The notes beneath the pieces are model-generated. The model saw nothing but the letters and a program-made list of their open reading frames with translations. It searched no databases and was not told where the DNA came from. The translations under genes and the position numbers were made by a program. This document shows positions 4,342 to 52,228 of a stretch of 62,304 bases of DNA, in pieces. The DNA is taken from positions 1 to 62,304 of IMG/VR virus record IMGVR_UViG_3300022745_000002. One strand, written 5' to 3'. This DNA comes from a virus. The first letter of the stretch is position 1, and every line of letters begins with the position of its first letter.

Positions 4342-5172
4342 TCAGGCGGCCGCGCGGCGGCGACGACGCACCGTCGGGTCGGCGGCGGCGGCCGCAGCGG
4401 GCTGCTGGGCGGCCTGCGTCGCGGGGGCAGGCTGCTCGGGCGCCACGTCGGTGACGGGCCCACGGCCACGGCCCCGGCGCGGCGCTTCGGCCGTCTCCGC
4501 AACGGGCGGCTGGGCGGGCGGTGCCGTCGCCGCAGGCTGCTCGGCGGTCTTCGTCGTTTCGGCAGCGGCAGGCGACGGCGCGTCCATCGCGATCCACGAC
4601 TTGATGTCGAAGATCGGGTTGTAGGTCAGGCCGTAGGTGGCGTGCTGGTAGCTGTCGTAGGTCAGCGCGATCACCGGCACGATGTGCTTGGGATCCGTGT
4701 CGAGCTGCCGCTGCAGCGCGGCGACGAGGTCGCTGAAGGCCTTCTTGCCGCCGTAGCTGTTGGCGGTGTACTCGACCGTGATGCCCTTGTCCTCGCCGTT
4801 GGTGCACATCATCTCGAGCGAGATGTTGTCGTCCCACTTGGCGCCGAAGTTCGGCAGATCGGCGATGTTGATCGGCGTCTGGAAGATCGACACCATCTGC
4901 TTGCCGAGCGGCGCACCGCCCTTCGGGTTCCAGCAGACGAAGCCCACCTTCAGCGAGAGCGGGTTGACGGCCCAGAGCGAGCCTTCCTCGACCTCGGTGT
5001 CCTTGGCGCCGTAGACCCACGCGCCGTCGCGCTTGTCCATGCGGAGGAAGGCATTGCCGCCCGCCACCTGAATGGTCTGCGAAGCGTTGGCCAGCGCCTT
5101 GCGGAACTGGCCAACGTCAGCTGACGGAAGCCCGGCGGTCTTGAACGCTACCACGGAATTTTCGTTCGACAT
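4342..5172 (-). CDS. Replication-module protein of unknown function, possibly ssDNA-binding or annealing
   Basis: Sits between the Cas4-like nuclease and the polymerase, where SSB-type genes usually lie. Pro/Ala-rich tail ends in RRGRGRG...RRRRR. No motif recognised. Confidence 0.7.
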   Translation of the reverse strand: MSNENSVVAFKTAGLPSADVGQFRKALANASQTIQVAGGNAFLRMDKRDGAWVYGAKDTEVEEGSLWAVNPLSLKVGFVCWNPKGGAPLGKQMVSIFQTPINIADLPNFGAKWDDNISLEMMCTNGEDKGITVEYTANSYGGKKAFSDLVAALQRQLDTDPKHIVPVIALTYDSYQHATYGLTYNPIFDIKSWIAMDAPSPAAAETTKTAEQPAATAPPAQPPVAETAEAPRRGRGRGPVTDVAPEQPAPATQAAQQPAAAAAADPTVRRRRRAAA

Positions 5173-13614: not shown

Positions 13615-13647
13615 GGCAATCCTGCCGCGCACCACTAGGAGCTTCCC

Positions 13648-13785
13648 ATGATCGTTCTTCGCTACACCATCAACGGAGCCAAGTTTCGCCGTCGCTACCC
13701 GGCATCCGAATGGCTGCTCGCCCACACCCGCGCGGCGGTCCTGCGCGATAACGGCGTCACGGTGACGATCACCGAGACCGAGTAA
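13648..13785 (+). CDS. Hypothetical early leader protein (45 aa, not in the ORF track)
   Basis: GGAGCTTCCCATG start context. Stop lies 1 nt before hairpin copy 3. Same layout as the 9125 and 11750 leader ORFs. Confidence 0.5.
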   Translation: MIVLRYTINGAKFRRRYPASEWLLAHTRAAVLRDNGVTVTITETE

Positions 13786-13786
13786 C

Positions 13787-13845
13787 GGATCCTGCTGACT
13801 GGCGCCCTGTTCGCGGGGCGCCAGACACCAGCACCCGCTGGAACC
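13787..13845 (+). repeat. Conserved intergenic hairpin element, copy 3 of 3
   Basis: GGATCCTGCTGACTGGCGCCCTGTTCGCGGGGCGCCAGACACCAGCACCCGCTGGAACC. Confidence 0.9.
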
Positions 13846-13871
13846 TGACAACCACCACTAGGAGCTTCTCA

Positions 13872-14666
13872 ATGTCCATCCTCGATACCGTTCTCTCCGA
13901 CGACCAGATCCGCCGCCTCGCCCCGTCGGTGTTCGCCGACCATGCCAGCCCGGTCTGCAAGGAAACCTACAGCTACCTGCCGACCTACCCGATCATCGAG
14001 CACCTGCGCGATCGCGGGATGGTCGTGACGCAGGTCCGCGAGGGCAAGAAGCGCGCGGCCAGCGGCCAGCTCTACGCCATGCACGAGGTGCGCATGCGCA
14101 AGGCCGACGACGTCTACGGCCGCCAGACCGGCGACCTCGGCGGCGTCACGCCCCAGATCGTGCTGCTGAACAGCCACGACAAGTCGACCTCGGCCACGGC
14201 ACTGGCGGGCATGCTGCGCTCGCTCTGCCACAACGGCATGTACTGGGCCGACCACTCGTTCGGCTTCAAGGCCGTGCACTACAAGATGGGCATGGAGCAG
14301 GTGCTCGACGGCATCGCCGCCGTGTCTGACCGCTTCGGCGAGATGATCGACAACGTCGAGCGCTGGAGCAAGATCCAGCTCACCAACGCCCAGCGCCTGC
14401 AGTTCGCCGAGCGTGCGCTCGAGCTCCGGGGCACCGCGCTCGCGGTCGATCCCGCCAATCTGCTGGTGGCGCCGCGCGAGGCCGATGTCGGCATGGATCT
14501 CTGGAAGACCTACAACGTGGTGCAGGAGAACCTGACCCACGGCGGCATCGCTGCCCAGAACAAGATGGGCAAGTGGCGCTCGCTGCGCCCGATCAAGGCG
14601 CTGAAGGTCGACAGCGACTTCAACCGCAAGCTCTGGGGCGTCGCCAACGAGCTGGTCGTCGCCTGA
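13872..14666 (+). CDS. DUF932-family protein (phage/plasmid-associated)
   Basis: LLNSHDKSTSA...LRSLCHNGM resembles the NSHDGSSA...R.vC.NG signature of DUF932. Confidence 0.8.
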   Translation: MSILDTVLSDDQIRRLAPSVFADHASPVCKETYSYLPTYPIIEHLRDRGMVVTQVREGKKRAASGQLYAMHEVRMRKADDVYGRQTGDLGGVTPQIVLLNSHDKSTSATALAGMLRSLCHNGMYWADHSFGFKAVHYKMGMEQVLDGIAAVSDRFGEMIDNVERWSKIQLTNAQRLQFAERALELRGTALAVDPANLLVAPREADVGMDLWKTYNVVQENLTHGGIAAQNKMGKWRSLRPIKALKVDSDFNRKLWGVANELVVA

Positions 14667-15090: not shown

Positions 15091-15363
15091 ATGTCTACAC
15101 GTAATGATCCCGTCGAAATTTTGGTAGCCGCAGCACTGAGCGCGCGCGGCTTTACTTTTGATCGCGAAATAGTCGCGCCGAACGGTTGTCGCCCTGATTT
15201 CTACGTGCGTGAATTGGATCTCTTCATAGAGGTCAAACAATTCAGCACTCCGCGAACGGCAGCCCAGATACACTCACTCACTAACATAGTAGTCGTGCAG
15301 GGTATGCCCGCAGCCAGAGCTTTCGACATGCTTCTCAACGCGACTGTGCGGCGCGCCGTATGA
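15091..15363 (+). CDS. Small PD-(D/E)XK-like nuclease-fold protein in an AT-richer segment
   Basis: RPDFYVRELDLFIEVKQ gives D...(D/E)-x-K spacing. Local GC is visibly lower than the flanks. Confidence 0.55.
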   Translation: MSTRNDPVEILVAAALSARGFTFDREIVAPNGCRPDFYVRELDLFIEVKQFSTPRTAAQIHSLTNIVVVQGMPAARAFDMLLNATVRRAV

Positions 15364-21249: not shown

Positions 21250-21510
21250 GCGGGACAAGGTGTTAGGGCCACTAGGGTGATGTGAGGATGCAGCGGAAGG
21301 TTTCCACTGCACCCTCTGAAAAATGTTTGATAATCAACGTACTAGGTTCAATAGGGTGTAAGGGTGCAGTGGAATTGTATTGTGAGGGGATAATACATAG
21401 AGATAGTTATCATATATGTACTAATATAACAGTCAGGGGAATATATAGGATTTCGGTGCACCCTCTGCACCCGCGATAGCCGGGCGGATATAACGCTTCA
21501 GGTCGAAATG
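21250..21510. other. Putative replication origin: AT-rich core flanked by short GC-rich repeats
   Basis: The most AT-rich stretch I noticed in the window (21385-21450). Exact inverted 12-mer CCACTGCACCCT (21304-21315) / AGGGTGCAGTGG (21361-21372). GTGCACCCTCTGCACCC at 21456-21472. AGGGGA-AATA-ATAG occurs twice. Lies directly downstream of the primase-helicase. Confidence 0.45.
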
Positions 21511-22866: not shown

Positions 22867-23042
22867 GGAAGCACTACCAGCGTCAGGGCTACAACGATAT
22901 CATGCGCATGCGCGCCAAGCAGCAGGTGCCGAAGAAGACCTCGTCGGAGGTCTGGGCGATGCTCAGGGATCTGCTGTTCAGCTGCTGCATGCTCTTCCTT
23001 GCGGCGTTCTTGATCGTGATCTTGGCCTCGATCAAATGGTGA
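22863..23042 (+). CDS. Small C-terminally anchored membrane protein (59 aa, GTG start)
   Basis: LLFSCCMLFLAAFLIVILASI is a transmembrane segment. GTGA overlap. Confidence 0.4.
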   Translation: MRKHYQRQGYNDIMRMRAKQQVPKKTSSEVWAMLRDLLFSCCMLFLAAFLIVILASIKW

Positions 23043-23611
23043 TGCTACAAAATATTCAAGAAGCGCGGGCAACGATTTGTGCGCGGCACTACACCCGATC
23101 GTGGCCATCGGGAAAGTCGTTGGTATACACGTATGAAGACGCGATTGTGGTGATGTCTATTCCGGCTAATTACAACACGGCGCGTTGGCTTGGCTGCGAA
23201 GCTAATCGAGTATGGGAATTGACGCGATTGTGGGCTCCAGATGGGCACCGTAAAAATTTACTGACCGAAGCGATCGCATATGCGTGCGCTGAATTTCATC
23301 GTGAAGATCTGGCTGACGCTTTGGTGTCGTATGCCGATCCTAATGCCGGGCACGGTGGAGGTGTCTACAAAGCGGCATCATGGACATTCCTTGGACAGTC
23401 CGAAGAAGCACGTGCGTATCGAACGGCTGATGGTCAAATTATTTCGCGTCGCAAGTTTCATTCAGGGTCCAAATCGATGAAGAAAGCTGAGATACTTGCT
23501 CTCGGTTACAATGAGCTTCGGCTTCCCGGGAAGCTTCGTTTTGCGCGCGGTTTAAACCGCCGAGGCAAGAAAGCTGTACGCCTAAAAATGCAGATGCTAC
23601 AAAATGCGTAG
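23036..23611 (+). CDS. mom: Mom-family (GNAT-like) DNA adenine modification enzyme candidate
   Basis: ARHYTRSWPSG..., WELTRLW and LVSYADPNAGHGGGVYKAASWTFLG match my recollection of the Mu Mom family signature. The gene is clearly AT-richer than its flanks. Confidence 0.7.
   Translation: MVMLQNIQEARATICARHYTRSWPSGKSLVYTYEDAIVVMSIPANYNTARWLGCEANRVWELTRLWAPDGHRKNLLTEAIAYACAEFHREDLADALVSYADPNAGHGGGVYKAASWTFLGQSEEARAYRTADGQIISRRKFHSGSKSMKKAEILALGYNELRLPGKLRFARGLNRRGKKAVRLKMQMLQNA
23041..23053 (+). repeat. 13-bp direct repeat GATGCTACAAAAT, left boundary of the Mom cassette
   Basis: Exact copy at 23593-23605. Confidence 0.9.
23593..23605 (+). repeat. 13-bp direct repeat GATGCTACAAAAT, right boundary of the Mom cassette
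   Basis: Exact copy of 23041-23053. Confidence 0.9.
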
Positions 23612-27075: not shown

Positions 27076-27255
27076 GGAACAGGATGCCGCACGATCGCGA
27101 CGTACGGCATGGGTGGGGACAACAGCGCGTAGCGGCGCGGGTGCGGCCAGTGAAGCAGCATCGTACTCAAGCCGTCGGTAACGGCGGTGGATTGCTCCTT
27201 AGCGTTGTCGGTGCTACGCCCCTGCAAAACCGTCGCTTTTTCTTGTGCGAGCTGC

Positions 27256-27348
27256 ATGCCCCAAGTCATTGAGTGGAACGGCCACAAGGTCGATGTCGAT
27301 CGCGCCCTCATGGAGATCACCCGTGAGGAGTGCGACGCATGCCGCTAG
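27256..27348 (+). pseudogene. Stranded resident 5' end of terL (30 codons, then a stop)
   Basis: MPQVIEWNGHKVDVDRALMEITREECDACR* versus TerL MTQIIEWRGHKIDVDRALMEITREECE.... By hand count, 22/27 aa and 59/81 nt are identical. Confidence 0.8.
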
Positions 27349-27790
27349 CACGTCCTATTCTCGCACGACTGTTGGATTTGCTCGACATCCAAGGGCCGGA
27401 TGACTGCTGGCTGTGGAAAGGTCGCGTTCACAAGAGCGGGTATGCGTATATCTCGAAAGGCGGCAAGGGCGGCGCAATGCTTCTCATGCATCGTGTCTCG
27501 TGGTGCGAACACAACAATTGTCCGGTGCCGGAAGGTGATGCAGGCAACAGCAAATTGACTGAGGATCTCGTTCGTCTTATTCGCGCGGATGAGCGTTCTC
27601 AACGCACGATTGCGGCCGAGCTTGGTGTCGACCAGACATTGATCAGCATGATAAAACTGCGCAAAGTTTGGGCGCACGTAACATGACGCAGATCATCGAA
27701 TGGCGCGGGCATAAGATCGATGTAGATCGCGCATTGATGGAGATCACGAGAGAAGAATGTGAAAGTTCGCTTTACACCTTCCTCATGCAT
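27337..27790 (+). mobile_element. Free-standing homing-endonuclease cassette plus donor-type terL 5' tract (boundaries approximate)
   Basis: An AT-richer block bounded on the left by the break in terL homology and on the right by the return to GC-rich codons. Confidence 0.6.
27339..27686 (+). CDS. Degenerate HNH_3-type endonuclease with the catalytic core deleted and the HTH tail retained
   Basis: GPDDCWLWKG...SGYAYI...LMHRVSW...PVPEG runs straight into NSKLTEDLVRLIR...SQRTIAAELGVDQTLISMIKLRKVWAHV. The usual H-x-C-D-N-x-x-C-x-N-P-x-H-L segment is absent. Confidence 0.7.
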   Translation: MPLARPILARLLDLLDIQGPDDCWLWKGRVHKSGYAYISKGGKGGAMLLMHRVSWCEHNNCPVPEGDAGNSKLTEDLVRLIRADERSQRTIAAELGVDQTLISMIKLRKVWAHVT

Positions 27791-29341
27791 GCGTGGCGCT
27801 TCATCGACCCGGCGCCGTTCAAGCCGGGCTGGGTGATCGATGCGCTCGCCGAGCATCTCGAGGCCGTGGTCGACGGTGAGATCCGCCGTCTGCTGATCAA
27901 CATCCCGCCGCGCTGTTCCAAGTCATCGATCTGCTCGGTCGCCTTCCCGGCATGGGTGTGGGCACAGAGTTTCAAGAGTGCGACCAGCGGGCCGGGCGTG
28001 GCGCTGCTGCACGCGTCCTACGCGCACTCACTGGCCCTGCGCGACAGCGTGAAGTGCCGCCGCCTGCTGAAGAGCACGTGGTACCAGCGCATGTGGGGCG
28101 ATCGCTTCAAGATCACGCCCGATCAGGACATGAAGATCCGCTTCCAGAACGACAAGGGAGGCGAGCGCCTGATCACCTCGGTCGACGCTGGCGTTACCGG
28201 TGAAGGCGGCAACATCATCATCGTCGACGATCCGAACAACGCGAAGGAAGTCCTGTCCGAGGCCGTGATCCAGTCGACCAACGAAGACTGGTGGGACGGC
28301 ACGATGAGCACGCGTCTCAACGATCCGAAGACCGGCGCCTTCATCGTCGTGCAGCAGCGTCTGGGCGAGAACGACCTGACCGGCCACATCCTCGCGAAGG
28401 AAGCGGCCGACTGGACGCACCTGATGCTGCCGATGGAGTACGAGCCCGATCGCAGCTTCACCACGGTCATCGGGTGGGAAGATCCGCGCACCGAAGAAGG
28501 CGAGCTGCTCTGGCCCGAGCGCTTCGGCCATGAGGAAGTGGCAAAGCTCAAGAGCAACCTAGGTTCGTGGAAGAGCGCCGGTCAGCTGCAGCAGCGCCCG
28601 GAGCCGAAGGGTGGCGGCATCATCAAGCGAGACTGGTGGAAGCTCTGGCCGCCCGAGGGCGAGGAGTTCAACAAGCGTGGTGAGCCGCTGCGGCCGCTGC
28701 AGAACCCGCCGTGCAGCTTCATCATCGCCAGCCTCGACACGGCCTACACCGAAAAGACGATCAACGACCCGAGCGCTCTCACGATCTGGGGCGTGTTCGC
28801 GGGCGACCCGGTGGCGCAGGAAGTGCGTGCCAGCGACGAGCACAGCGTGCGCGTCTACACCGAGACGTCGACACGCGTGATCTTGCTGCACGCATGGACG
28901 AAGCACCTCGAGATCCACCCGCTCGTCAACGAGGTGGCCAAGAGCTGCAAGCAGTTCAACGTCGACAAGCTCCTGATCGAGGACAAGGCGGCAGGACACA
29001 GCGTGGCGCAGGAGCTGCGACGCCTGTTCTCGAACGAGAACTGGGCCGTGCAGCTGATCAACCCGAAGAACCTCGACAAGCTCGCGCGCCTCTACTCCGT
29101 GCAGCATCTTTGGGAAGAGGGCATGATCTACGCCCCCGAGCGCACGTGGGCCGAGGCCGTCATCGCCCAGTGCGGCACCTTCCCCAACGCCGCGCACGAC
29201 GATCTCGTCGACACGACCAGCATGGCGTTGCGGCACATGCGCGACATCGGCCTGCTCCAGCGCGGCACCGAGATCACGGCTGACGTGACCGAGGCCGTGC
29301 GACATACTGGCCGCCCACCGCAGAGGTTGTACCCATCATGA
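27683..29341 (+). CDS. terL: Terminase large subunit
   Basis: P-loop-like INIPPRCSKSS. Walker B IIIVDDPN. C-terminal nuclease region with LLIEDKAAG. Start at ATG 27683 (the track ORF begins at 27668). Confidence 0.92.
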   Translation: MTQIIEWRGHKIDVDRALMEITREECESSLYTFLMHAWRFIDPAPFKPGWVIDALAEHLEAVVDGEIRRLLINIPPRCSKSSICSVAFPAWVWAQSFKSATSGPGVALLHASYAHSLALRDSVKCRRLLKSTWYQRMWGDRFKITPDQDMKIRFQNDKGGERLITSVDAGVTGEGGNIIIVDDPNNAKEVLSEAVIQSTNEDWWDGTMSTRLNDPKTGAFIVVQQRLGENDLTGHILAKEAADWTHLMLPMEYEPDRSFTTVIGWEDPRTEEGELLWPERFGHEEVAKLKSNLGSWKSAGQLQQRPEPKGGGIIKRDWWKLWPPEGEEFNKRGEPLRPLQNPPCSFIIASLDTAYTEKTINDPSALTIWGVFAGDPVAQEVRASDEHSVRVYTETSTRVILLHAWTKHLEIHPLVNEVAKSCKQFNVDKLLIEDKAAGHSVAQELRRLFSNENWAVQLINPKNLDKLARLYSVQHLWEEGMIYAPERTWAEAVIAQCGTFPNAAHDDLVDTTSMALRHMRDIGLLQRGTEITADVTEAVRHTGRPPQRLYPS

Positions 29342-42436: not shown

Positions 42437-43132
42437 GTGACCACCAGCGGCACCTACGCCTACAATCCCAGCCTCGGCGAGATTGTCCTCTACAGCTTCA
42501 ACCTGATCGGCGTGCGCAACACGTCGCTCACGGAGGAGCACATGCTTGGCGCGCGCACGGCCGCCAACATGCTGCTGGCCGACTGGTCGAACGAGACGCC
42601 GAACTTGTGGAAGGTCGATCAGGTCGTGGTGCCGCTCGTCGCCGGGCAGGCGACCTACGCGGTCGACGCCAAGACGGTGATGATCCTCGACGCGTACATG
42701 ACGATCAACAACGGCCTGTCGCCCGCGATCGACCGTATCATCCTGCCGATCAGCCGCTCGGAGTACGCGACCTATCCGAACAAGACGCAGCAGGGCTTCA
42801 CGACCGTCTTCTGGTTCGATCGCCTGATCTCGCCGACGGTCACCCTGTGGCCGGTACCGGACGGCACCAGTGCGCAGTTCCTGACGTACTACCGCGTCAC
42901 CCAGATACAGGACGCGGATTTCACGTCCGGCCAGACCGTCGACATCCCCTATCGCTGGCTGAAAGCCTTCGCGGACGGGTTGGCGGTCGAGCTCGGCCGC
43001 TCGTGGGCGCCCGCGACGGTGGCGCTCAACGCGCCCTTCGCCGACAAGAGCTACCAGCGCGCGTATGCGCAAGACACCGAGAACACTCCGCTCTATATCT
43101 CGCCGATGATCGGCGGGTACTACAGGAACTGA
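42437..43132 (+). CDS. Head-tail adaptor-like protein (GTG start)
   Basis: Size, position and general pattern of podovirus adaptor proteins. AGGAG ribosome-binding site. Confidence 0.55.
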   Translation: MTTSGTYAYNPSLGEIVLYSFNLIGVRNTSLTEEHMLGARTAANMLLADWSNETPNLWKVDQVVVPLVAGQATYAVDAKTVMILDAYMTINNGLSPAIDRIILPISRSEYATYPNKTQQGFTTVFWFDRLISPTVTLWPVPDGTSAQFLTYYRVTQIQDADFTSGQTVDIPYRWLKAFADGLAVELGRSWAPATVALNAPFADKSYQRAYAQDTENTPLYISPMIGGYYRN

Positions 43133-43645: not shown

Positions 43646-45831
43646 TGTCCGCATTTGTTCAAATCCCCAATCTCCCCCAAGGCATCGCGCTCAACGGCAC
43701 CGAGGCGTTCGAGGCGGTGCAATCGGGCGTGTCGGTCCAGCTCAGCGCCGCCCAAATCGCTGCCTACGTCTCGGCGAACTTCACGGGCGTGAACACGTTT
43801 TCGGCCGGGAGCACGGGGCTCACGCCAGCGTCGCCGACCCATGGCAACGTGGTGCTCGCGGGTACGCTCAACGCGAGCTCGGGCGGCACGGGGCTGGCCA
43901 GCTACACGGCGGGCGACTTGCTCTATGCCAGCGGCGCCTCCACGCTTGCGCGACTTCCTGTCGGTGCCAACGGGCAGATCCTGTCGCTGGTTGGCGGCCT
44001 GCCCGCGTGGGTGAATGACAGCTCGGTCAGCGTGTCGTCCTTCAGCGGTGGCACCACGGGCCTGACGCCAAGCACGCCGTCGACCGGCGCGATCGTGCTT
44101 GCGGGCACTCTTGTCGCGGCAAACGGCGGCACGGGGCAGTCGACCTACACGGTCGGCGACCTGCTCTACGCCAGCGGCACCACGGCGTTGTCGAAGCTCG
44201 CCGATGTCGCGACCGGCAACGCGCTGATCTCGGGCGGTGTCGGCGTCGCGCCCTCGTGGGGCAAGATCGGCCTCACGACGCACGTGTCCGGCGTGCTGCC
44301 CGCCGCGAACGGTGGCACTGGCGTGGCCAATTCCTCGACGATCACGCTCGGCGGCAACTTCGCCATGTCCGGCGCCTTCACGTTCGCTGGAACGCTGACC
44401 GGTAATACCTCGATCACTTTTCCGACCAGCGGCACCCTTGCCACGACGGCTACTGCCAATGTCGCAACGGTTTCGAATTCCGACGGCACGCTGACGATCA
44501 GTCCGACATCAGGCGCTGTCGTCGCTTCGATCGCGCTCGGACACCCCAATACGTGGTCGGGACAACAGACTTTCGTCGCGCCTATCCTCGGCACGCCCGC
44601 CTCCGTGACACTGACCAACGCAACGGGTCTGCCGTTGTCGACCGGCGTCACCGGCACGTTGCCCGTGCTCAACGGCGGCACGGGCACCACGACCTCCACT
44701 GGCACCGGCAGCGTCGTGCTCTCGAGCTCGCCGACACTCGTCACGCCCGCACTCGGCACACCTTCGGCATTGGTACTGACCAACGCAACGGGCCTGCCGC
44801 TGTCGACTGGTGTCACTGGCAACCTGCCAGTCGGCAATCTCAACAGCGGCACGAGTGCAAGCTCGACGACCTTCTGGCGCGGCGACGGCACGTGGGCGAC
44901 GGTCTCCGGTGCGGGTGTTTCGCTGACCGTTGGCACGACGCCGGTCACGGGCGGCACGAGCGGCCGCGTGCTATACGACAATGGCGGCGTGCTCGGCGAA
45001 ATGACGAACACCGGCACGGGCACGGTGAACGTCCTGCAGAACTCCCCGACGCTGACCACGCCCGTGCTCGGTGTTGCAACTGGCACGTCGCTCGCGCTCG
45101 GTGGCGCAACCATCGGCACCGACGCTCTGGGCGTCACCGGCACTTCGACCTTTAGCAGCACGATCAACGCTAACGGAAATGTACTGCTGGCCAGCGCGTC
45201 TCTGCTCGAGTGGAACGCAGACGTCATTCTATCACGTAAAGGTGCGGCTAATCTCCAGCATGGCGGCGCCGACGCCGCGTCGCCGGTCGCGCAGACGATC
45301 AGCTTCCAGAGCGTCGTGGCGGGCACCACGAATACTGCGGGCGCGGACGCCACGATCAGGGGTTCGGCGGGCACAGGAACGGGCGCACCCGGCCAGATCA
45401 AATTCCAGATCGCTCCTGCGGGTTCGACCGGTTCTACGCAGAACGGTTTTCAAAATATCGCCATCCTCGGTGGCAGCGGACTTGTTCTCGGGACCGGTGC
45501 GGGCGGCCGCGCGCTGTCGTTCACTGCGGGCTACGCCGACAGCAGCCTCGTCGCGAACATCACTTCGTCCGGCAACAACATCGTCTGGCAGAACCGGAAC
45601 ACCGGCAACGCCAATATGACGTGGTACTACAATGGCGATGTGGGCATCGGGCCCGGTACAGCGCTTGCGGTCGGTGCGACAGCGGGTTTCCTGCAATTGC
45701 CGACGTGTGCCGGTACGCCGACAGGCGTGCCCGCTGACACTGGCGCGGGCAAGGCCAACGTCGTCTACGACACCTCGGCCAACAAGATCTGGGTCTACAA
45801 CGGTTCGTGGCGCGGTGTGGCGGTGACCTGA
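43645..45831 (+). CDS. Tail fibre with internally repeated modules
   Basis: N-terminal [22 protein letters not shown]. Duplicated GGTG...GDLLYASG...L units. Duplicated [15 protein letters not shown] units. Confidence 0.85.
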
Positions 45832-48336: not shown

Positions 48337-48651
48337 TTGCCGCCCATCCCGGGCCTGATCGAGGAGATACTTTTGACCGACCAAGCCACCCCGCCGCAGC
48401 AGCCGCCCGTGCAGGAAGACCCCCTGAACAACGTGCCGATCAAGCTCGAGCTGCCTGTCATCGCCGTGAACATGATCCTGACGATGCTTTCGCAGCTGCC
48501 TTACGCGCAGTCGGCGAACGTCATCACGGCGATCCGCCAGCAGGGCGACCCGCAGGTGGCGGCGGCTCGCGAGGTCTTGGCAGCGGCGGCGGCGCCCCCG
48601 ATGCCCGCGAACCGCAAGTCGCGCCGCGCGGCGGCCGCGAAGACGCGATGA
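48337..48651 (+). CDS. Hypothetical protein (104 aa, TTG start uncertain)
   Basis: The only long ORF in this gap with a non-artefact middle section. Confidence 0.45.
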   Translation: MPPIPGLIEEILLTDQATPPQQPPVQEDPLNNVPIKLELPVIAVNMILTMLSQLPYAQSANVITAIRQQGDPQVAAAREVLAAAAAPPMPANRKSRRAAAAKTR

Positions 48652-48698
48652 TCGGGGCGGCTGTCCTGCCACGCGCTTTTGTGGCAGGATAGCCCGCC

Positions 48699-49412
48699 AT
48701 GGTTGCCGGATACACCTACTCGTCATACGTCGATGCGCTGTCGCGCCTGCTCGTCGTCGACAGCACCAACGACAACTTTCAGGCGCTGCTGCCGTCGATC
48801 ATCGACTACGCCGAGCTGCGGCTCTGTCAGGACATCGACTTCCTGTCGACCGTCACGTCCTACATCGGCACGGTATCGCCCGGCTCGCGGCAACTTACCT
48901 TTCCGATCGCGACCTTCATCACGCTGCAGAACGTCAATTTCCTGACGCCAGCGGGTACGGCCGACCCCAACATCGCGTCGCGCAATCCCTGCCTGCCCGT
49001 CACCAAGGAATACCTGAATTTCGAATGGCCGAGCTCGCAAGGCGCCGGGCTGCCCAAGAAGTTCGCCATGGTCAACCAGAACACCTTGGCGCTGGGCCCG
49101 TGGCCGGATCTCGCCTACTCGGTCGAGCTCGTGGGCACCTACCGCCCGCCGTCGTTGTCGGCGACCAATACGACGACGTTCATCAGCACGTACCTGCCGT
49201 CGCATTTCATGATGGCGTCCATGGTCTACGGATCCGGGTACCAGCGTAATTTCGGCGCGCAATCCGGCGACCCGGCAATGGCCGTGAGCTACGAGAGCCA
49301 GTATCAGGCACTTCTCAAGTCCGCGCAGCTCGAGGAGGCGCGCAAGAAATTTACCTCGTCTGGTTGGACATCTATGTCGCCAACTGTAGCAGCTACTCCG
49401 TCGCGTGGCTGA
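48699..49412 (+). CDS. Tail tubular A / adaptor-like protein whose last ~13 codons are of foreign (AT-richer) type
   Basis: 237 aa, directly upstream (ancestrally) of the 733-aa tail gene. 3' end MSPTVAATPSRG* is duplicated at 49985-50023. Confidence 0.7.
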   Translation: MVAGYTYSSYVDALSRLLVVDSTNDNFQALLPSIIDYAELRLCQDIDFLSTVTSYIGTVSPGSRQLTFPIATFITLQNVNFLTPAGTADPNIASRNPCLPVTKEYLNFEWPSSQGAGLPKKFAMVNQNTLALGPWPDLAYSVELVGTYRPPSLSATNTTTFISTYLPSHFMMASMVYGSGYQRNFGAQSGDPAMAVSYESQYQALLKSAQLEEARKKFTSSGWTSMSPTVAATPSRG

Positions 49413-49984
49413 ACATGAAAACATGCAGCACTTGTCGTGTAAGCAAGCCGGTTGAAGCTTTCGATATAAATCGCGCCAAAAAAGATGGCCGACATAATGC
49501 GTGTCGTGCTTGCGACAGCGCACGCAAAAAGAAAATGCGTAAAGACAATACGGATGTTTTCAAAGCTAAAGATCGCGCGCGCTACATCGCAAACAAAACT
49601 GAAGAGCTAGAAAAACGTAGAAAATATTATGTCAATAATCGTGCTACCGTAATGGCGCGCGTGACCGCGTACCAACGTCAGAACAGGCCGAAATATCGAG
49701 AATTCATTCGCCGCTGGTATGCGGCGCATCCTGAGAAAGCAGCCTATTACACTGCGAAACGAAGGACAGCTAAAATGCGCGCGCAACCCAACTGGCTGTC
49801 AGCAATACAGCTTGCACAAATTCAAGAATTCTATGACGTCGCGCATGCGAGAACGGTACAGACTGGCGAAATTCATCACGTCGACCACATCGAGCCGCTG
49901 CAGGGGAAGACCTCGCGAGGTTTGCACGTGCCGTGGAACCTGCAGGTGCTGACGGCGGCCGACAATTGGTCGAAAGGTAACGCT
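49290..49984 (+). mobile_element. Free-standing HNH cassette plus donor-type 3' tract of the upstream gene (boundaries approximate)
   Basis: An AT-richer block ending where the GC-rich resident remnant begins. Confidence 0.6.
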
Positions 49985-50023
49985 ATGTCGCCCGCTCCAG
50001 CTGCGTCACCATCGCGGGGCTAG
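49415..50023 (+). CDS. HNH endonuclease, reading through into the resident remnant of the upstream gene
   Basis: N-terminal CSTC...CRAC finger. Core GEIHHVDHIEPLQGKTSRGLHVPWNLQVLTAADNWSKGN. C-terminal MSPAPAASPSRG*. Confidence 0.9.
   Translation: MKTCSTCRVSKPVEAFDINRAKKDGRHNACRACDSARKKKMRKDNTDVFKAKDRARYIANKTEELEKRRKYYVNNRATVMARVTAYQRQNRPKYREFIRRWYAAHPEKAAYYTAKRRTAKMRAQPNWLSAIQLAQIQEFYDVAHARTVQTGEIHHVDHIEPLQGKTSRGLHVPWNLQVLTAADNWSKGNAMSPAPAASPSRG
49985..50023 (+). pseudogene. Stranded resident 3' end of gene 48699..49412 (13 codons including the stop)
   Basis: ATGTCGCCCGCTCCAGCTGCGTCACCATCGCGGGGCTAG versus 49374-49412. By hand count, 27/39 nt and 9/12 aa are identical. Its stop lies 3 nt before the next gene's ATG. 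Confidence 0.75.
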
Positions 50024-50026
50024 GCG

Positions 50027-52228
50027 ATGCCCCATCAGACACTCAAGCTCATTCCGGGCGTCGACCTCAACACGACCGAGGCCCTGAACCAAGCGGGCAT
50101 AACCGCCAGCCAGCTCATCCGCTTCCGGCGCGACCTGACGAGTGGCGTGGCGCTCGTGCAGAAGCTCGGCGGATGGCTGCGCATCTTCCCGAGCGCGTTC
50201 CCCGCGATCGTGCGCGCGCTCTGGGCATGGCAGGACACCAACAAGAACAAGTATCTCGCCGTGGGTTGCGAGCCTTCGGCGACGCCGGGCGTGAATTCGC
50301 CGCTGCTTGTGCTGCCGTACCGCAACGGCACGAGCGCGGGCTCCCTGATCGACATCACGCCGCACGTGCTCGAGGACAATGTCGCCGTCGCGGTCTCCAC
50401 ACTCACGACGACGAACCTCGTCACGATCAAGGATGTCGGCAGCAACATCACCGTCTATGACTCCGTCTTCATCCCCGCGCATATCAGCGTGGGCGGCGTC
50501 ATCCTGTTCGGTTTCTATCCCGCGATCGCGGCAAGCCCCGACACGTATCAGATCCTGCTGGTCGACCAGTTCGGCAATCCGATCTTTCCGACGGCGGCCG
50601 TGACCAACGGCGGTGCCGTGGCGCAGTTCACGACAACCAGCGGCCTGCAGTCGGTGACCGTCACGCTCAACGACCATGGCTACGAAGTCGGCGACACGTA
50701 CCCTATCCTGATCAGCACAGCCGTCGGCGGCGTCGTGCTCGCGGGCAACACGCTCGTGCAGGCGGTGACCGACGCGAACCATTTCGTGATCTACGCGCCG
50801 AACGTGGCCTCGAGCACCGCTACGGTCTCGATCAACGGCGGCGAGGCGCGCTACGACTACTATATCGGCTTCGGTCCGTTGCCGACCGGTACGGGCTTCG
50901 GCATCGGGGGCTTCGGTCGCGGTGGCTTCGGTACGGGCATTCCGCCAGTGGCGCAGCCCGGCGCCAACATCGCGACACTGGATTGGGTACTCGACAACTG
51001 GGGCGAGATCCTGATCGCGCTGCCGACCGATACGCTTTTCGGGTCGATCGATGGCACGACGTATAACGGCGCGCCGCTGTTCTACTGGTCGCCCGAAGCC
51101 AACACCGCGTCGGCCATCGCCATCGCCAACGGCCCCGTCGCGAGCGCATCCTTCTTCGTCGCGATGCCCCAGCGGCAGATCGTGGCGCTCGGTACGACGA
51201 CCAACGGCGTGCAGGATCCTCTTCTCGTGCGCTGGTGTGACGTCAACGATTTCTTGAGCAAGACGGCGTGGGTAGCGTTGCCGACCAATCAGGCGGGCCA
51301 GTACCGCCTGACGCGCGGCTCGCTCATCGTCGGCGGTTTGCAGGCCAACCAGCAGGGTCTGATCTGGACCGATGTCGGCCTCTGGGCGATGCAGTACATC
51401 GGCACGGGCGATGCCAATGCGTCCGTCTACAGCTTCAACGAGATCGGCAAGGGCTGCGGGCTCATCGCGAAGAAGGCCATGGGCACGCTGGGCGGCGTCA
51501 CCTACTGGATGGGCGGCACCGAGACGACGGCGCCGACAGGTTCCGTCGCGAGCCTCACCAATACCGGTCAGTTCTTCAAGCTTGCGGGCAACGGCGTCGA
51601 GATCATGGAGTGCTCGGTCTGGGATGCCGTCTTCCAGAATATCGATCGCAACAACCTCTACAAGATCCGCTGCGCAGTGAACTCGAGCTTCAACGAGGTC
51701 GTCTGGTACTACCCGAGCGCGAACGGCGGCGGCGAAGTCGACAGCTACGTGAAGTACACGGTCAACATGAACGTCTGGGACTATGGTTCGCTCGGGCGCA
51801 CGGCATGGGTCGACCAATCCGTGCTCGGCCAGCCGATCGGCGCGGATCCGAACCGGCTCGTGCAGCAGCATGAAGTGTCCTACGACGCCGACGGCCAGCC
51901 CTTGGTCGCGAGTTTCCAGACGGGCTACTTCACGTTGAACGACGGCGAATTCCTGACGTTCGTCGACCAGTTCTGGCCCGACATGAAGTGGGGTCCGTAC
52001 GGCAGCACGCCGAATGCACAACTCCTGCTCACCTTCTTCGTCACCGAGTATCCCGGGCAGACGCCGCGTCAGTACGGACCTTTCACGCTCTCGCAGGCGA
52101 CGACCTACGTGACGCCGCGCTTCCGGGGGCGGCTCGTGTCTATCCTCTTCCAGTCGGTCGATGTCGGCACCTTCTGGCGCGTCGGCGCGAACCGGTATCG
52201 CTTCAACCCCGACGGAAAGTTCCTCTGA
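50027..52228 (+). CDS. Tail tubular B / nozzle-like protein
   Basis: 733 aa, following the adaptor-like gene as in T7-type gp11-gp12 order. No motif verified. Confidence 0.7.
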   Translation: MPHQTLKLIPGVDLNTTEALNQAGITASQLIRFRRDLTSGVALVQKLGGWLRIFPSAFPAIVRALWAWQDTNKNKYLAVGCEPSATPGVNSPLLVLPYRNGTSAGSLIDITPHVLEDNVAVAVSTLTTTNLVTIKDVGSNITVYDSVFIPAHISVGGVILFGFYPAIAASPDTYQILLVDQFGNPIFPTAAVTNGGAVAQFTTTSGLQSVTVTLNDHGYEVGDTYPILISTAVGGVVLAGNTLVQAVTDANHFVIYAPNVASSTATVSINGGEARYDYYIGFGPLPTGTGFGIGGFGRGGFGTGIPPVAQPGANIATLDWVLDNWGEILIALPTDTLFGSIDGTTYNGAPLFYWSPEANTASAIAIANGPVASASFFVAMPQRQIVALGTTTNGVQDPLLVRWCDVNDFLSKTAWVALPTNQAGQYRLTRGSLIVGGLQANQQGLIWTDVGLWAMQYIGTGDANASVYSFNEIGKGCGLIAKKAMGTLGGVTYWMGGTETTAPTGSVASLTNTGQFFKLAGNGVEIMECSVWDAVFQNIDRNNLYKIRCAVNSSFNEVVWYYPSANGGGEVDSYVKYTVNMNVWDYGSLGRTAWVDQSVLGQPIGADPNRLVQQHEVSYDADGQPLVASFQTGYFTLNDGEFLTFVDQFWPDMKWGPYGSTPNAQLLLTFFVTEYPGQTPRQYGPFTLSQATTYVTPRFRGRLVSILFQSVDVGTFWRVGANRYRFNPDGKFL

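Follow-up and report, generated by a model that had tools for sequence, protein, structure and literature searches.

The viral record IMGVR_UViG_3300022745_000002 of IMG/VR, analyzed as a single stretch of 62,304 nucleotides (nt) and referred to here as the window, carries an HNH-type endonuclease gene between two virion genes at positions 48,699 to 50,026. All features of this locus lie on the plus strand. The upstream gene (48699..49412) encodes a complete tail adaptor of 237 amino acids (aa) that matches the Pfam family SU10_adaptor (PF24175, E 1.1e-16). Its stop codon is separated by a spacer of 2 nt, read directly from the sequence (AC, 49413..49414), from the ATG of an open reading frame (ORF) of 202 codons at 49415-50023. 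This HNH ORF ends with a TAG codon at 50021-50023, 3 nt ahead of the ATG (50027) of the downstream gene (50027..52228), which encodes a nozzle- or hub-like virion protein of 733 aa (PHROG 3287, virion structural protein, E 7.5e-47) and directly follows the adaptor gene in relatives. The endonuclease proper accounts for 190 codons of the HNH ORF (49415..49984), lacks a stop codon of its own and matches PHROG 1035 (E 9.7e-22) and PHROG 26577 (E 5.2e-21).

The last 12 codons of the HNH ORF resemble the end of the adaptor gene. The proximal tail, comprising the present last 12 adaptor codons and TGA (49374..49412), encodes MSPTVAATPSRG, and the distal tail, comprising the last 12 codons of the HNH ORF and TAG (49985..50023), encodes MSPAPAASPSRG; the longer C-terminal ends of the two proteins read ...GWTSMSPTVAATPSRG and ...SKGNAMSPAPAASPSRG. 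Gene 48699-49412 terminates ...SSGWTSMSPTVAATPSRG-TGA and the HNH ORF terminates ...NWSKGNAMSPAPAASPSRG-TAG. The tails share 27/39 nt and 9/12 aa. An earlier note made without database searches (the sequence-only reading) had given the same coordinates, sequences and counts, and re-reading the sequence confirmed them. The proximal tail would be a spare gene end brought in by a cassette, and the distal one a displaced remnant of the resident adaptor tail that now forms the C-terminus of the HNH protein. Both edges of the insert are marked by ATGTCGCC / ATG(G/T)CGCC. The HNH ORF has its own ATG and the adaptor ORF is complete with its own stop, so the endonuclease gene lies inside neither an intron nor an intein. 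A group I intron or other RNA element at the locus was ruled out, as no Rfam family was detected in 48500-50500. A search of the region for promoters or terminators carried by the cassette found none.

The HNH protein combines an N-terminal CxxC...CxxC zinc finger, a helical linker and a core reading HHVDHIEPL...NLQVL...NWSKGN. PHROG families annotated as endonuclease VII or HNH endonuclease match the 202-aa ORF with E values of 1e-21 to 1e-5, and the family to which it belongs is large, with 524 word-indexed matches and 29,207 representatives at 50% identity (E <= 0.001). Family members share a C-terminal core, HHVDHIxPL...GLHVPWNLQVL...NxxK, in which D157, H158, N175 and N184 do not vary among 52 aligned relatives and are kept in the window protein; all family-invariant residues are present there. 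The HHVDHIxPL...NxxK core resembles the canonical HNH consensus. The catalytic motif of the HNH (beta-beta-alpha-Me) superfamily pairs (D/H)H on strand one with Asn in strand two or the turn and with Asn or His on the helix, and the window protein has these residues. A confident AlphaFold model (predicted local distance difference test, pLDDT, 92.7) places beta strands at residues 154-158 and 176-180 and a helix at 181-187 over the motif. The last 13 residues (190-202), which correspond to the remnant, form a low-confidence coil in this model, and family members normally end 3-15 aa past the KxN motif. The 202-aa ORF is called an HNH nuclease because of motif, PHROG and model evidence rather than a match to a curated profile.

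How unusual the similarity of the two tails is depends on the level at which it is assessed. Across the window and on both strands, 27/39 is the best non-self match of either tail, the runner-up being 24/39. A repeat search recovers independently both this pair (D9) and a pair at the terminase gene terL (D3), but in this genome of 64% GC it also returns numerous pairs of 34-40 nt that are 70-76% identical, including pairs within 1.5 kb of each other. Under a shuffled-codon null model that keeps both peptides, a mean of 23.7/36 identical nt is expected and 26/36 are observed, so the DNA similarity is no more than the peptide similarity predicts and its significance at the nucleotide level is weak. 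At the level of protein and position, the significance is strong. When 115 homologues, with the window's own protein left out, were turned into a profile of the 12-residue tail, a search of the six-frame translation gave only two matches. These are the end of the adaptor protein (18.5 bits, E 1.4e-4) and the end of the HNH protein (17.7 bits, E 2.5e-4), both at the extreme C-terminus and in register with a stop codon; the third-best match reached 8.6 bits. The sequence-only reading would have been given up had the 39-nt similarity been insignificant against such a null; the outcome favors it through protein and position, with DNA identity itself only at the level that the peptides predict.

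Base composition also sets the insert apart. The HNH gene has a GC content of 0.50, compared with 0.62-0.64 in its neighbors, and is AT-richer as the sequence-only reading had stated. In the proximal tail, G or C occupies the third codon position (GC3) in 5/12 codons, a low value given the codon usage of the window (P = 1.6e-4); at the matching codons, insert-free relatives reach 10-11/13. The same reading had described roughly the last 100 nt of the adaptor gene as AT-richer. Taken as a foreign tract, this length is too great: the 13 codons ahead of the proximal tail have low GC3 in insert-free relatives too (7-8/13), and are therefore no evidence of import, so that the resolvable foreign tract is about 30-40 nt. 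The distal copy is GC-rich like the genome, as had been proposed (GC 0.69), but its codon usage is only partly host-like, with GC3 7/12 (P = 0.01).

The peptide shared by the two tails is a family-wide feature of the adaptor. Among 1956 homologues matched, nearly all of the 120 listed are 236-245 aa long, and all of these 120, together with 32 more around the second carrier L006 described below (152 C-termini inspected in total), end W(T/S)S(M/I)SPxxxA(T/S)PxRG or in close variants. The PSRG-type tail, whose absence directly before the tail gene in homologues would have spoken against the sequence-only reading, is thus present in every C-terminus inspected. In the insert-free relatives L001, L003, L004, L143, L147 and MW202675.1, the adaptor stop lies 2-3 nt ahead of the nozzle start (stop/start at 4714/4717 in L001, 3017/3021 in L003, 3705/3709 in L004, and 3726/3730 in both L143 and L147). 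MW202675.1, the nearest GenBank phage, has its nozzle homologue annotated as 'phage stabilization protein' and starting 3 nt past the adaptor homologue. This spacing identifies window positions 50021-50026 as the ancestral junction, which agrees with the earlier suggestion that the HNH stop, 3 nt before the ATG of the 733-aa gene, marks that junction. In every relative, and likewise in the two remnants, the final Arg-Gly codons of the adaptor form a Shine-Dalgarno (SD)-like GAGG or GGGG that lies 7-10 nt ahead of the nozzle ATG; in the window, the distal remnant provides the nozzle gene with its SD-like GGGG and 3-nt spacing (around 50000-50026). The window adaptor is closest to those of L001 and L003 (88-89% aa identity, versus 81% for L004), whereas the N-terminus of the nozzle protein is closest to L004 (85%, versus 69%), which indicates a recombination boundary at the insert. 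A DNA search of a phage collection with the locus returned only one weak match, so no close annotated relative was available for comparison.

The genome encodes two SU10_adaptor-family genes, at 42437-43132 (231 aa, E 4.7e-9) and at 48699-49412 (237 aa). Several relatives (for example L009, 2606-3878) carry the same HNH family right after the 231-aa paralogue, without a duplication; the window has no insert there. More distant relatives have two or three tandem adaptor paralogues, or an extra gene of about 320 aa between adaptor and nozzle (L024, L026, L027; L016-L021). Evidently, gene content at the adaptor/nozzle junction varies within this phage group.

A second fused allele was found in P0122, an HNH protein of 217 aa that is 56-60% identical to that of the window and ends in the adaptor tail ...NLSKGNRMSPAVAATPTRG. 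It is the only other adaptor-tailed homologue among the best 120 of the 524. This sister allele is carried by four contigs from four samples (L005-L008), in which the order is adaptor (ending ...MAPATTATPSRG and a stop), 3 nt, HNH, 3 nt, and a nozzle gene of 776 aa. The fusion point is the same as in the window, namely KGN, one codon, then MSP (KGN-x-MSP). In L006, the spare end, HNH gene and remnant occupy 614-652, 656-1270 and 1271-1309, respectively, and the inserted unit measures 657 nt, compared with 611 nt in the window. The closest relatives of the L005-L008 adaptor (88-93% identical) end MSPAVAATPTRG, which is the remnant found after the HNH gene and unlike the adaptor's present tail; the remnant of L006 is identical in 12/12 aa to the tails of the three closest relatives.

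L143, an insert-free contig with a 776-aa nozzle gene, allows the two copies to be compared with a native tail. The adaptor genes of L006 and L143 match at every position (100%) for about 360 nt, up to ...TCGTCGATG (...GCGTGGTCGTCGATG), and identity then collapses in the last 36 nt of the adaptor, with about 18/30 in the last block. Similarity resumes exactly at the ATG of the remnant and runs on into the nozzle gene. The remnant after the L006 HNH gene matches the L143 tail at 36/39 nt, and the proximal copy matches it at only about 22/39 nt and 8/12 aa, including a switch of Arg codons from CGN to AGA. The foreign tail of L006 uses the rare codons AGA GGA, which place AGAGGA before the HNH ATG, and its GC3 is 6/13. 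Farther out, L006 and L143 are about 82-84% identical, complete identity being confined to the 360 nt by the insert. These comparisons show directly that L006 has a native distal copy and a proximal copy imported together with the endonuclease. The idea that the remnant travels with the cassette, suggested by the 33-34/39 identity of the L006 remnant to the tails of the window's clade, was dropped because identical peptides and strong GC3 codon bias give such identity anyway.

Members of the HNH family are distributed patchily. The adaptor/nozzle locus is without an insert in L001, L003, L004, L011-L015, L143, L147 and MW202675.1, and with one in the window, L005-L008 and L053-L060, so that presence and absence alternate among relatives at one conserved locus. 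In L053-L060, the HNH gene lies cleanly between adaptor and nozzle, with a natural C-terminus and no remnant, and its stop overlaps the nozzle ATG. The family is also found right after the other SU10_adaptor paralogue (L009, L010, L029, L030, L034, L042, L043) and behind the gene that precedes an acetyltransferase-like gene (L003, L011, L012), and further sites exist. The HNH gene is 8-14 GC points under its host in the three phages measured (the window, L006 and L054). Exchange of flanking sequence along with the gene is visible in L006, where the last 30-36 nt or so of the adaptor are foreign and the 360 nt upstream equal L143; in the window, codon usage alone points to it. From this pattern, the family appears to behave like a free-standing homing endonuclease, and homing itself is predicted.

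The fused form of the gene is much less common than the family. When the C-terminus of the endonuclease was compared with that of the upstream gene at the protein level, at 35 loci from metagenome and viral scans, the window and L005-L008 scored 45-46 and all other loci 30 or less. Beyond these two, no further fused alleles were found among the best 120 of the 524 homologues, at the 35 loci, or among the best 150 of the 29,207 representatives, and a degenerate DNA pattern for KGN-x-M(S/A)P-A returned chance matches only in IMG/VR and GTDB genomes.

The locus is probably a free-standing HNH homing endonuclease gene inside the 3′ end of the adaptor gene, inserted just before the Met codon that lies 12 residues from the end. 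The mobile unit, as read, consists of a spare copy of the last 12 adaptor codons with their stop, 2-3 nt, and an HNH gene truncated after KGN(x) without a stop, placed before Met(-12). The adaptor would still be made at full length from the spare end, and the resident last 12 codons and stop would have been pushed downstream, where they now appear to terminate the HNH ORF. The remnant seemingly still supplies the SD-like Arg-Gly codons and 3-nt spacing to the nozzle gene, and may have been kept because these signals lie within it. The core of the sequence-only reading, in which an intact HNH cassette gives the adaptor gene a new 3′ end and its frame runs into a stranded remnant, is supported by the family tail, the junctions in relatives and the comparison of L006 with L143.

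A mechanism for the spread of such an element can be proposed. Insert-free alleles are predicted to be cleaved at or near the boundary between ...TCN and ATGTCGCC..., 39 nt before the adaptor stop, within a recognition region that is conserved in uninterrupted form as ...TGG(A/T)CNTCN followed directly by ATGTCNCC.... The insertion would part the two halves of this site and, together with the recoding of the spare end, would render carriers immune to cutting. The composite allele could then spread by double-strand-break repair, with the adaptor body as the left homology arm and the remnant plus nozzle gene as the right one. The fusion of HNH and remnant may have arisen once, through an aberrant (non-homologous or microhomology) right-hand join, from a donor in which the HNH gene lay cleanly between adaptor and nozzle, as in L053-L060. 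Since the fusion point is the same in carriers whose HNH proteins are 56-60% and whose adaptors are about 54-60% identical, this join would have been made once and then inherited, and the present copy in the window can be accounted for by ordinary two-sided homologous repair. The 'one illegitimate junction' of the sequence-only reading is therefore reasonable for the origin of the fusion from an L053-type donor, but not for how the window acquired its copy, as the fusion point is shared with L005-L008, a phage only distantly related to the window.

Several observations weigh against this interpretation. Curated resources give the nuclease assignment no significant match: Pfam returned nothing for the HNH ORF at E <= 0.01 (best match AI2M-like_HNH, E 0.069, under the gathering score), NCBIfam gave no match, PDB sequence and profile searches gave none that was significant, and the 18 best PDB matches from Foldseek, mostly HNH/His-Me nucleases that include Cas9 HNH domains, I-PpoI, colicin E7 and a type II restriction enzyme, all have E >= 0.25. 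The lowish GC3 of the window's distal copy is not fully what a native tail should show. In L006, the near flanks but not the far flanks match L143, which makes the direction of transfer ambiguous. No near-isogenic insert-free relative of the window was among those found, the closest being about 80% identical in nt, and neither of the window's tails is closer to relatives than the other (proximal 26-29, distal 28 of 39), where L006 shows the clear difference given above. Nucleotide divergence was dropped as proof of a foreign proximal tail in the window, as its last 39-nt block matches relatives at 27-29/39 and is no outlier among other blocks (20-37). The polarity of the window's copies consequently rests on codon usage and on analogy with L006, by which the proximal copy would be foreign and the distal copy native. 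The fused architecture is also rare, with two protein clusters among the top matches of two large searches and two pattern scans. Finally, the divergence of the HNH proteins of the window and L006 (56-60% aa identity) is similar to that of the flanking genes (54-63%), so that long vertical residence is possible.

This last point leads to an alternative that we regard as unlikely, in which the cassette entered a distant ancestor once, was inherited vertically and was lost repeatedly through recombination between the 39-nt direct repeats, with an HNH protein that may no longer home. Deletion between the repeats would yield exactly the insert-free structure of the relatives, a single origin predicts the identical fusion point of both carriers, and the rarity of fused alleles and the matching divergence of HNH, adaptor and nozzle are in keeping with old residence. 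However, dozens of insert-free lineages lie between the two carriers and would require many independent precise losses. The complete identity of L006 and L143 next to the insert, falling to about 82-84% farther out, resembles a conversion tract of recent date, the wholly intact ORF still lies well under its host in GC, and the same family is patchy over many sites in the phage group. The tract in L006 also bears on a purely local origin, in which a tandem doubling of the last 39 nt, or a long target-site duplication, came first, the HNH gene then entered between the two repeats, and these diverged in place with nothing imported. The copies are direct repeats flanking the insert, both starting with ATGTCGCC, and neither copy in the window is clearly nearer to relatives. 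Such an origin is nonetheless very unlikely: about 17/39 nt and 4/12 aa separate the L006 proximal copy from the native tail, the switch of Arg codons among them, and divergence in place cannot be so local when the 360 nt just upstream are identical to L143. Proximal tails have low GC3 in both carriers, in contrast to the native tails of relatives, and HNH enzymes are not known to make 39-nt staggered cuts.

The remnant could instead have been selected as part of the nuclease, if the adaptor-type peptide were functional on the HNH protein, for instance in docking it onto the portal/adaptor/nozzle assembly. Two lineages with HNH proteins only 56-60% identical both retain it in frame and free of stops and indels, and it fits the tail profile nearly as well as the real tail. 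Its conservation is explained, however, by the nozzle SD and spacing held in the same 39 nt, and equally by gene conversion from insert-free alleles, which can refresh it; the segment is moreover predicted to be disordered, and other family members, including those at the same site in L053-L060, have no such tail. A selected fusion is accordingly given very little credence. Chance resemblance, in which an Ala/Pro/Ser/Arg/Gly-rich run-on in a GC-rich genome merely looks like an adaptor tail, could draw on the many 34-40-nt pairs of similar identity in the window and on a nucleotide identity no higher than the peptides predict. It is effectively refuted by the profile search, with its two full-length matches that are both C-terminal and in register with stops, and by a second phage with the same fusion, whose remnant matches the native tail of an insert-free relative at 36/39 nt.

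A mirror-image case is found at the 5′ end of terL, also on the plus strand. A stranded native terL head (MPQVIEWNGHKVDVDRALMEITREEC...) now forms a 30-codon ORF with a stop at 27256..27348 (repeat D3) and is followed by a short HNH-type endonuclease-like ORF of 115 aa at 27339..27686, which looks degenerate and matches the HNH endonuclease families PHROG 3593, 59 and 826 over parts of its length. terL itself occupies 27683..29341 (PHROG 38, terminase large subunit, E 4e-88); its ATG at 27683 was confirmed, and its first 26 codons (27683-27760) form the replacement head. The stranded and present heads are 74% identical over 81 nt. Compared with the terL head of the relative L063, the stranded head is identical at 69/78 nt and the current one at 60/78. 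GC3 is host-like in the stranded head (21/26) and lower in the current head (16/26, P = 0.005), and the 115-aa ORF has a GC content of 0.55 and no Pfam match. A stranded head, an HNH-like ORF and a recoded head in a row indicate the same design at a 5′ end, with a different and apparently decaying endonuclease gene. The terL architecture to which the sequence-only reading referred is thus real. The terL-head duplication was seen in 0/37 relatives checked. A packaging-type HNH partner of the terminase is an unlikely identity for the 115-aa ORF, given its shortness, its partial PHROG matches, its position beside the terL-head duplication and the absence of this duplication from the 37 relatives.

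The stranded terL head is preceded by about 180 nt (27076-27255) that follow the stop of the upstream gene, where the closest relative L063 has only 5 nt; this stretch may be debris of an earlier insertion. In L102-L104, L106 and L107, only about 375-470 residues of terL are matched across a span of about 2.1-2.4 kb, which suggests an insertion inside terL (an intein, an intron or an endonuclease gene). Other features of the window include a low-GC island at 23036-23611 with a Mom-like DNA-modification gene (GC 0.51, Pfam Mom E 4e-19), and low-GC islands at a 65-aa ORF (21282-21479, GC 0.42) and a 90-aa ORF (15091-15363) with a weak endonuclease PHROG match. The largest direct repeats found in the window are diverged pairs at 43807-44181 (132 nt, 70%, 243 nt apart) and 44568-44852 (120 nt, 71%, 165 nt apart). 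A 45-nt intergenic motif (…CCACCACTAGGAGCTTC…ATG) precedes two successive small genes, at 13621-13665 and 13844-13888, and is probably a shared translation or transcription start signal.

Homing endonucleases favor conserved sites in essential genes, where insertion normally needs an intron or intein to keep the gene working. The adaptor locus would represent a phage element that brings a replacement gene end instead. Somewhat more speculatively, recoded spare gene ends may constitute a third general route for phage homing endonucleases besides introns and inteins, in which the unit is transmissible, works at 3′ ends (adaptor) as well as 5′ ends (terL), and leaves a remnant that is kept for translation start signals and as homology arm for the next round. 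In this broad form, the proposal builds on the single fusion point shared by HNH genes only 56% identical, from which it takes the element to be inherited and passed on as one unit. The prediction of a cleavage site in the uninterrupted sequence is concrete, and the arrangement offers a possible route to carrier immunity. Foreign gene ends and remnants can mislead gene calling, either through a bogus endonuclease C-terminus or through a short upstream ORF at the host gene, and can likewise mislead phylogenies of phage structural genes; in mosaic phage genomes they also serve as markers of recombination boundaries. Should such arrangements prove common, homing sites would be revealed without biochemistry by a search, at the protein level, for gene ends duplicated beside nuclease genes.

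Elements of this design can be set beside several known systems. Some integrative elements insert at the 3′ ends of tRNA genes and have an attP that bears a substitute 3′ end. As at the adaptor locus, the end of the target gene is restored by the element and a partial duplicate remains at the far junction. These elements depend on site-specific recombination by an integrase in bacterial chromosomes, whereas the model for the adaptor locus invokes neither an integrase nor att sites. Intron- and intein-borne homing endonucleases resemble the proposed model in that insertion into conserved coding sequence splits the recognition site and host gene function is kept. Unlike in those systems, function would be kept by a replacement gene end rather than by RNA or protein splicing, and the adaptor has its own stop. 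Closer in setting are the free-standing homing endonucleases of T4-like and other phages (Seg, Mob), which carry out intronless homing with co-conversion of flanking markers (PMC2988022); homing endonuclease genes have also been found at boundaries of genetic exchange in phages (PMC10448857). The HNH gene shares with them a free-standing ORF in a conserved gene order, a patchy presence among relatives, a GC content under that of the host, the exchange of flanking sequence along with the gene and a recombination boundary at the insert. Seg/Mob-type genes lie between genes or split genes into two functional halves, but the insertion point here is inside a reading frame. No description of a spare gene end leaving a duplicated remnant was found for phage endonucleases in a literature search of incomplete coverage.

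The nearest parallel comes from fungal mitochondria, where gene hybrids consisting of a mobile ORF, a foreign C-terminus and a native C-terminus have been described in Glomus atp6, atp9, cox2 and nad3 (PMC3630166), following the first report of such a hybrid, Allomyces macrogynus atp6 with an endonuclease ORF (Paquin et al. 1994). Partial C-terminal duplications beside homing endonuclease genes are also known from cob and atp6 of Endoconidiophora (PMC6279837). In the mitochondrial hybrids, the reading frame continues into the inserted end, it is the native end that matches relatives, and the two ends have 63-81% DNA identity and encode nearly identical protein (PMC3630166). The window and L006 both show the order of replacement segment, ORF and native remnant. 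As in mitochondria, an endonuclease ORF lies in the 3′ part of an essential gene, a foreign in-phase C-terminal copy keeps the product complete, and the native segment is stranded downstream of the ORF, where it matches insert-free relatives (here in L006); the copies are alike in protein and diverged in DNA, at 62-69% identity here. Several traits differ. The enzyme is of the HNH type rather than LAGLIDADG or GIY-YIG, the host is a structural operon of a double-stranded DNA phage rather than mitochondrial DNA, and the replaced segment comprises only 12 codons. The remnant is translated as the C-terminus of the endonuclease and holds the putative ribosome-binding site of the next gene, and a mirror-image 5′ version at terL is present in the same genome. 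With an HNH-type enzyme in a phage genome, the element works like the mitochondrial hybrids without being a member of those element families. The architecture is probably new for phages, and known from fungal mitochondria.

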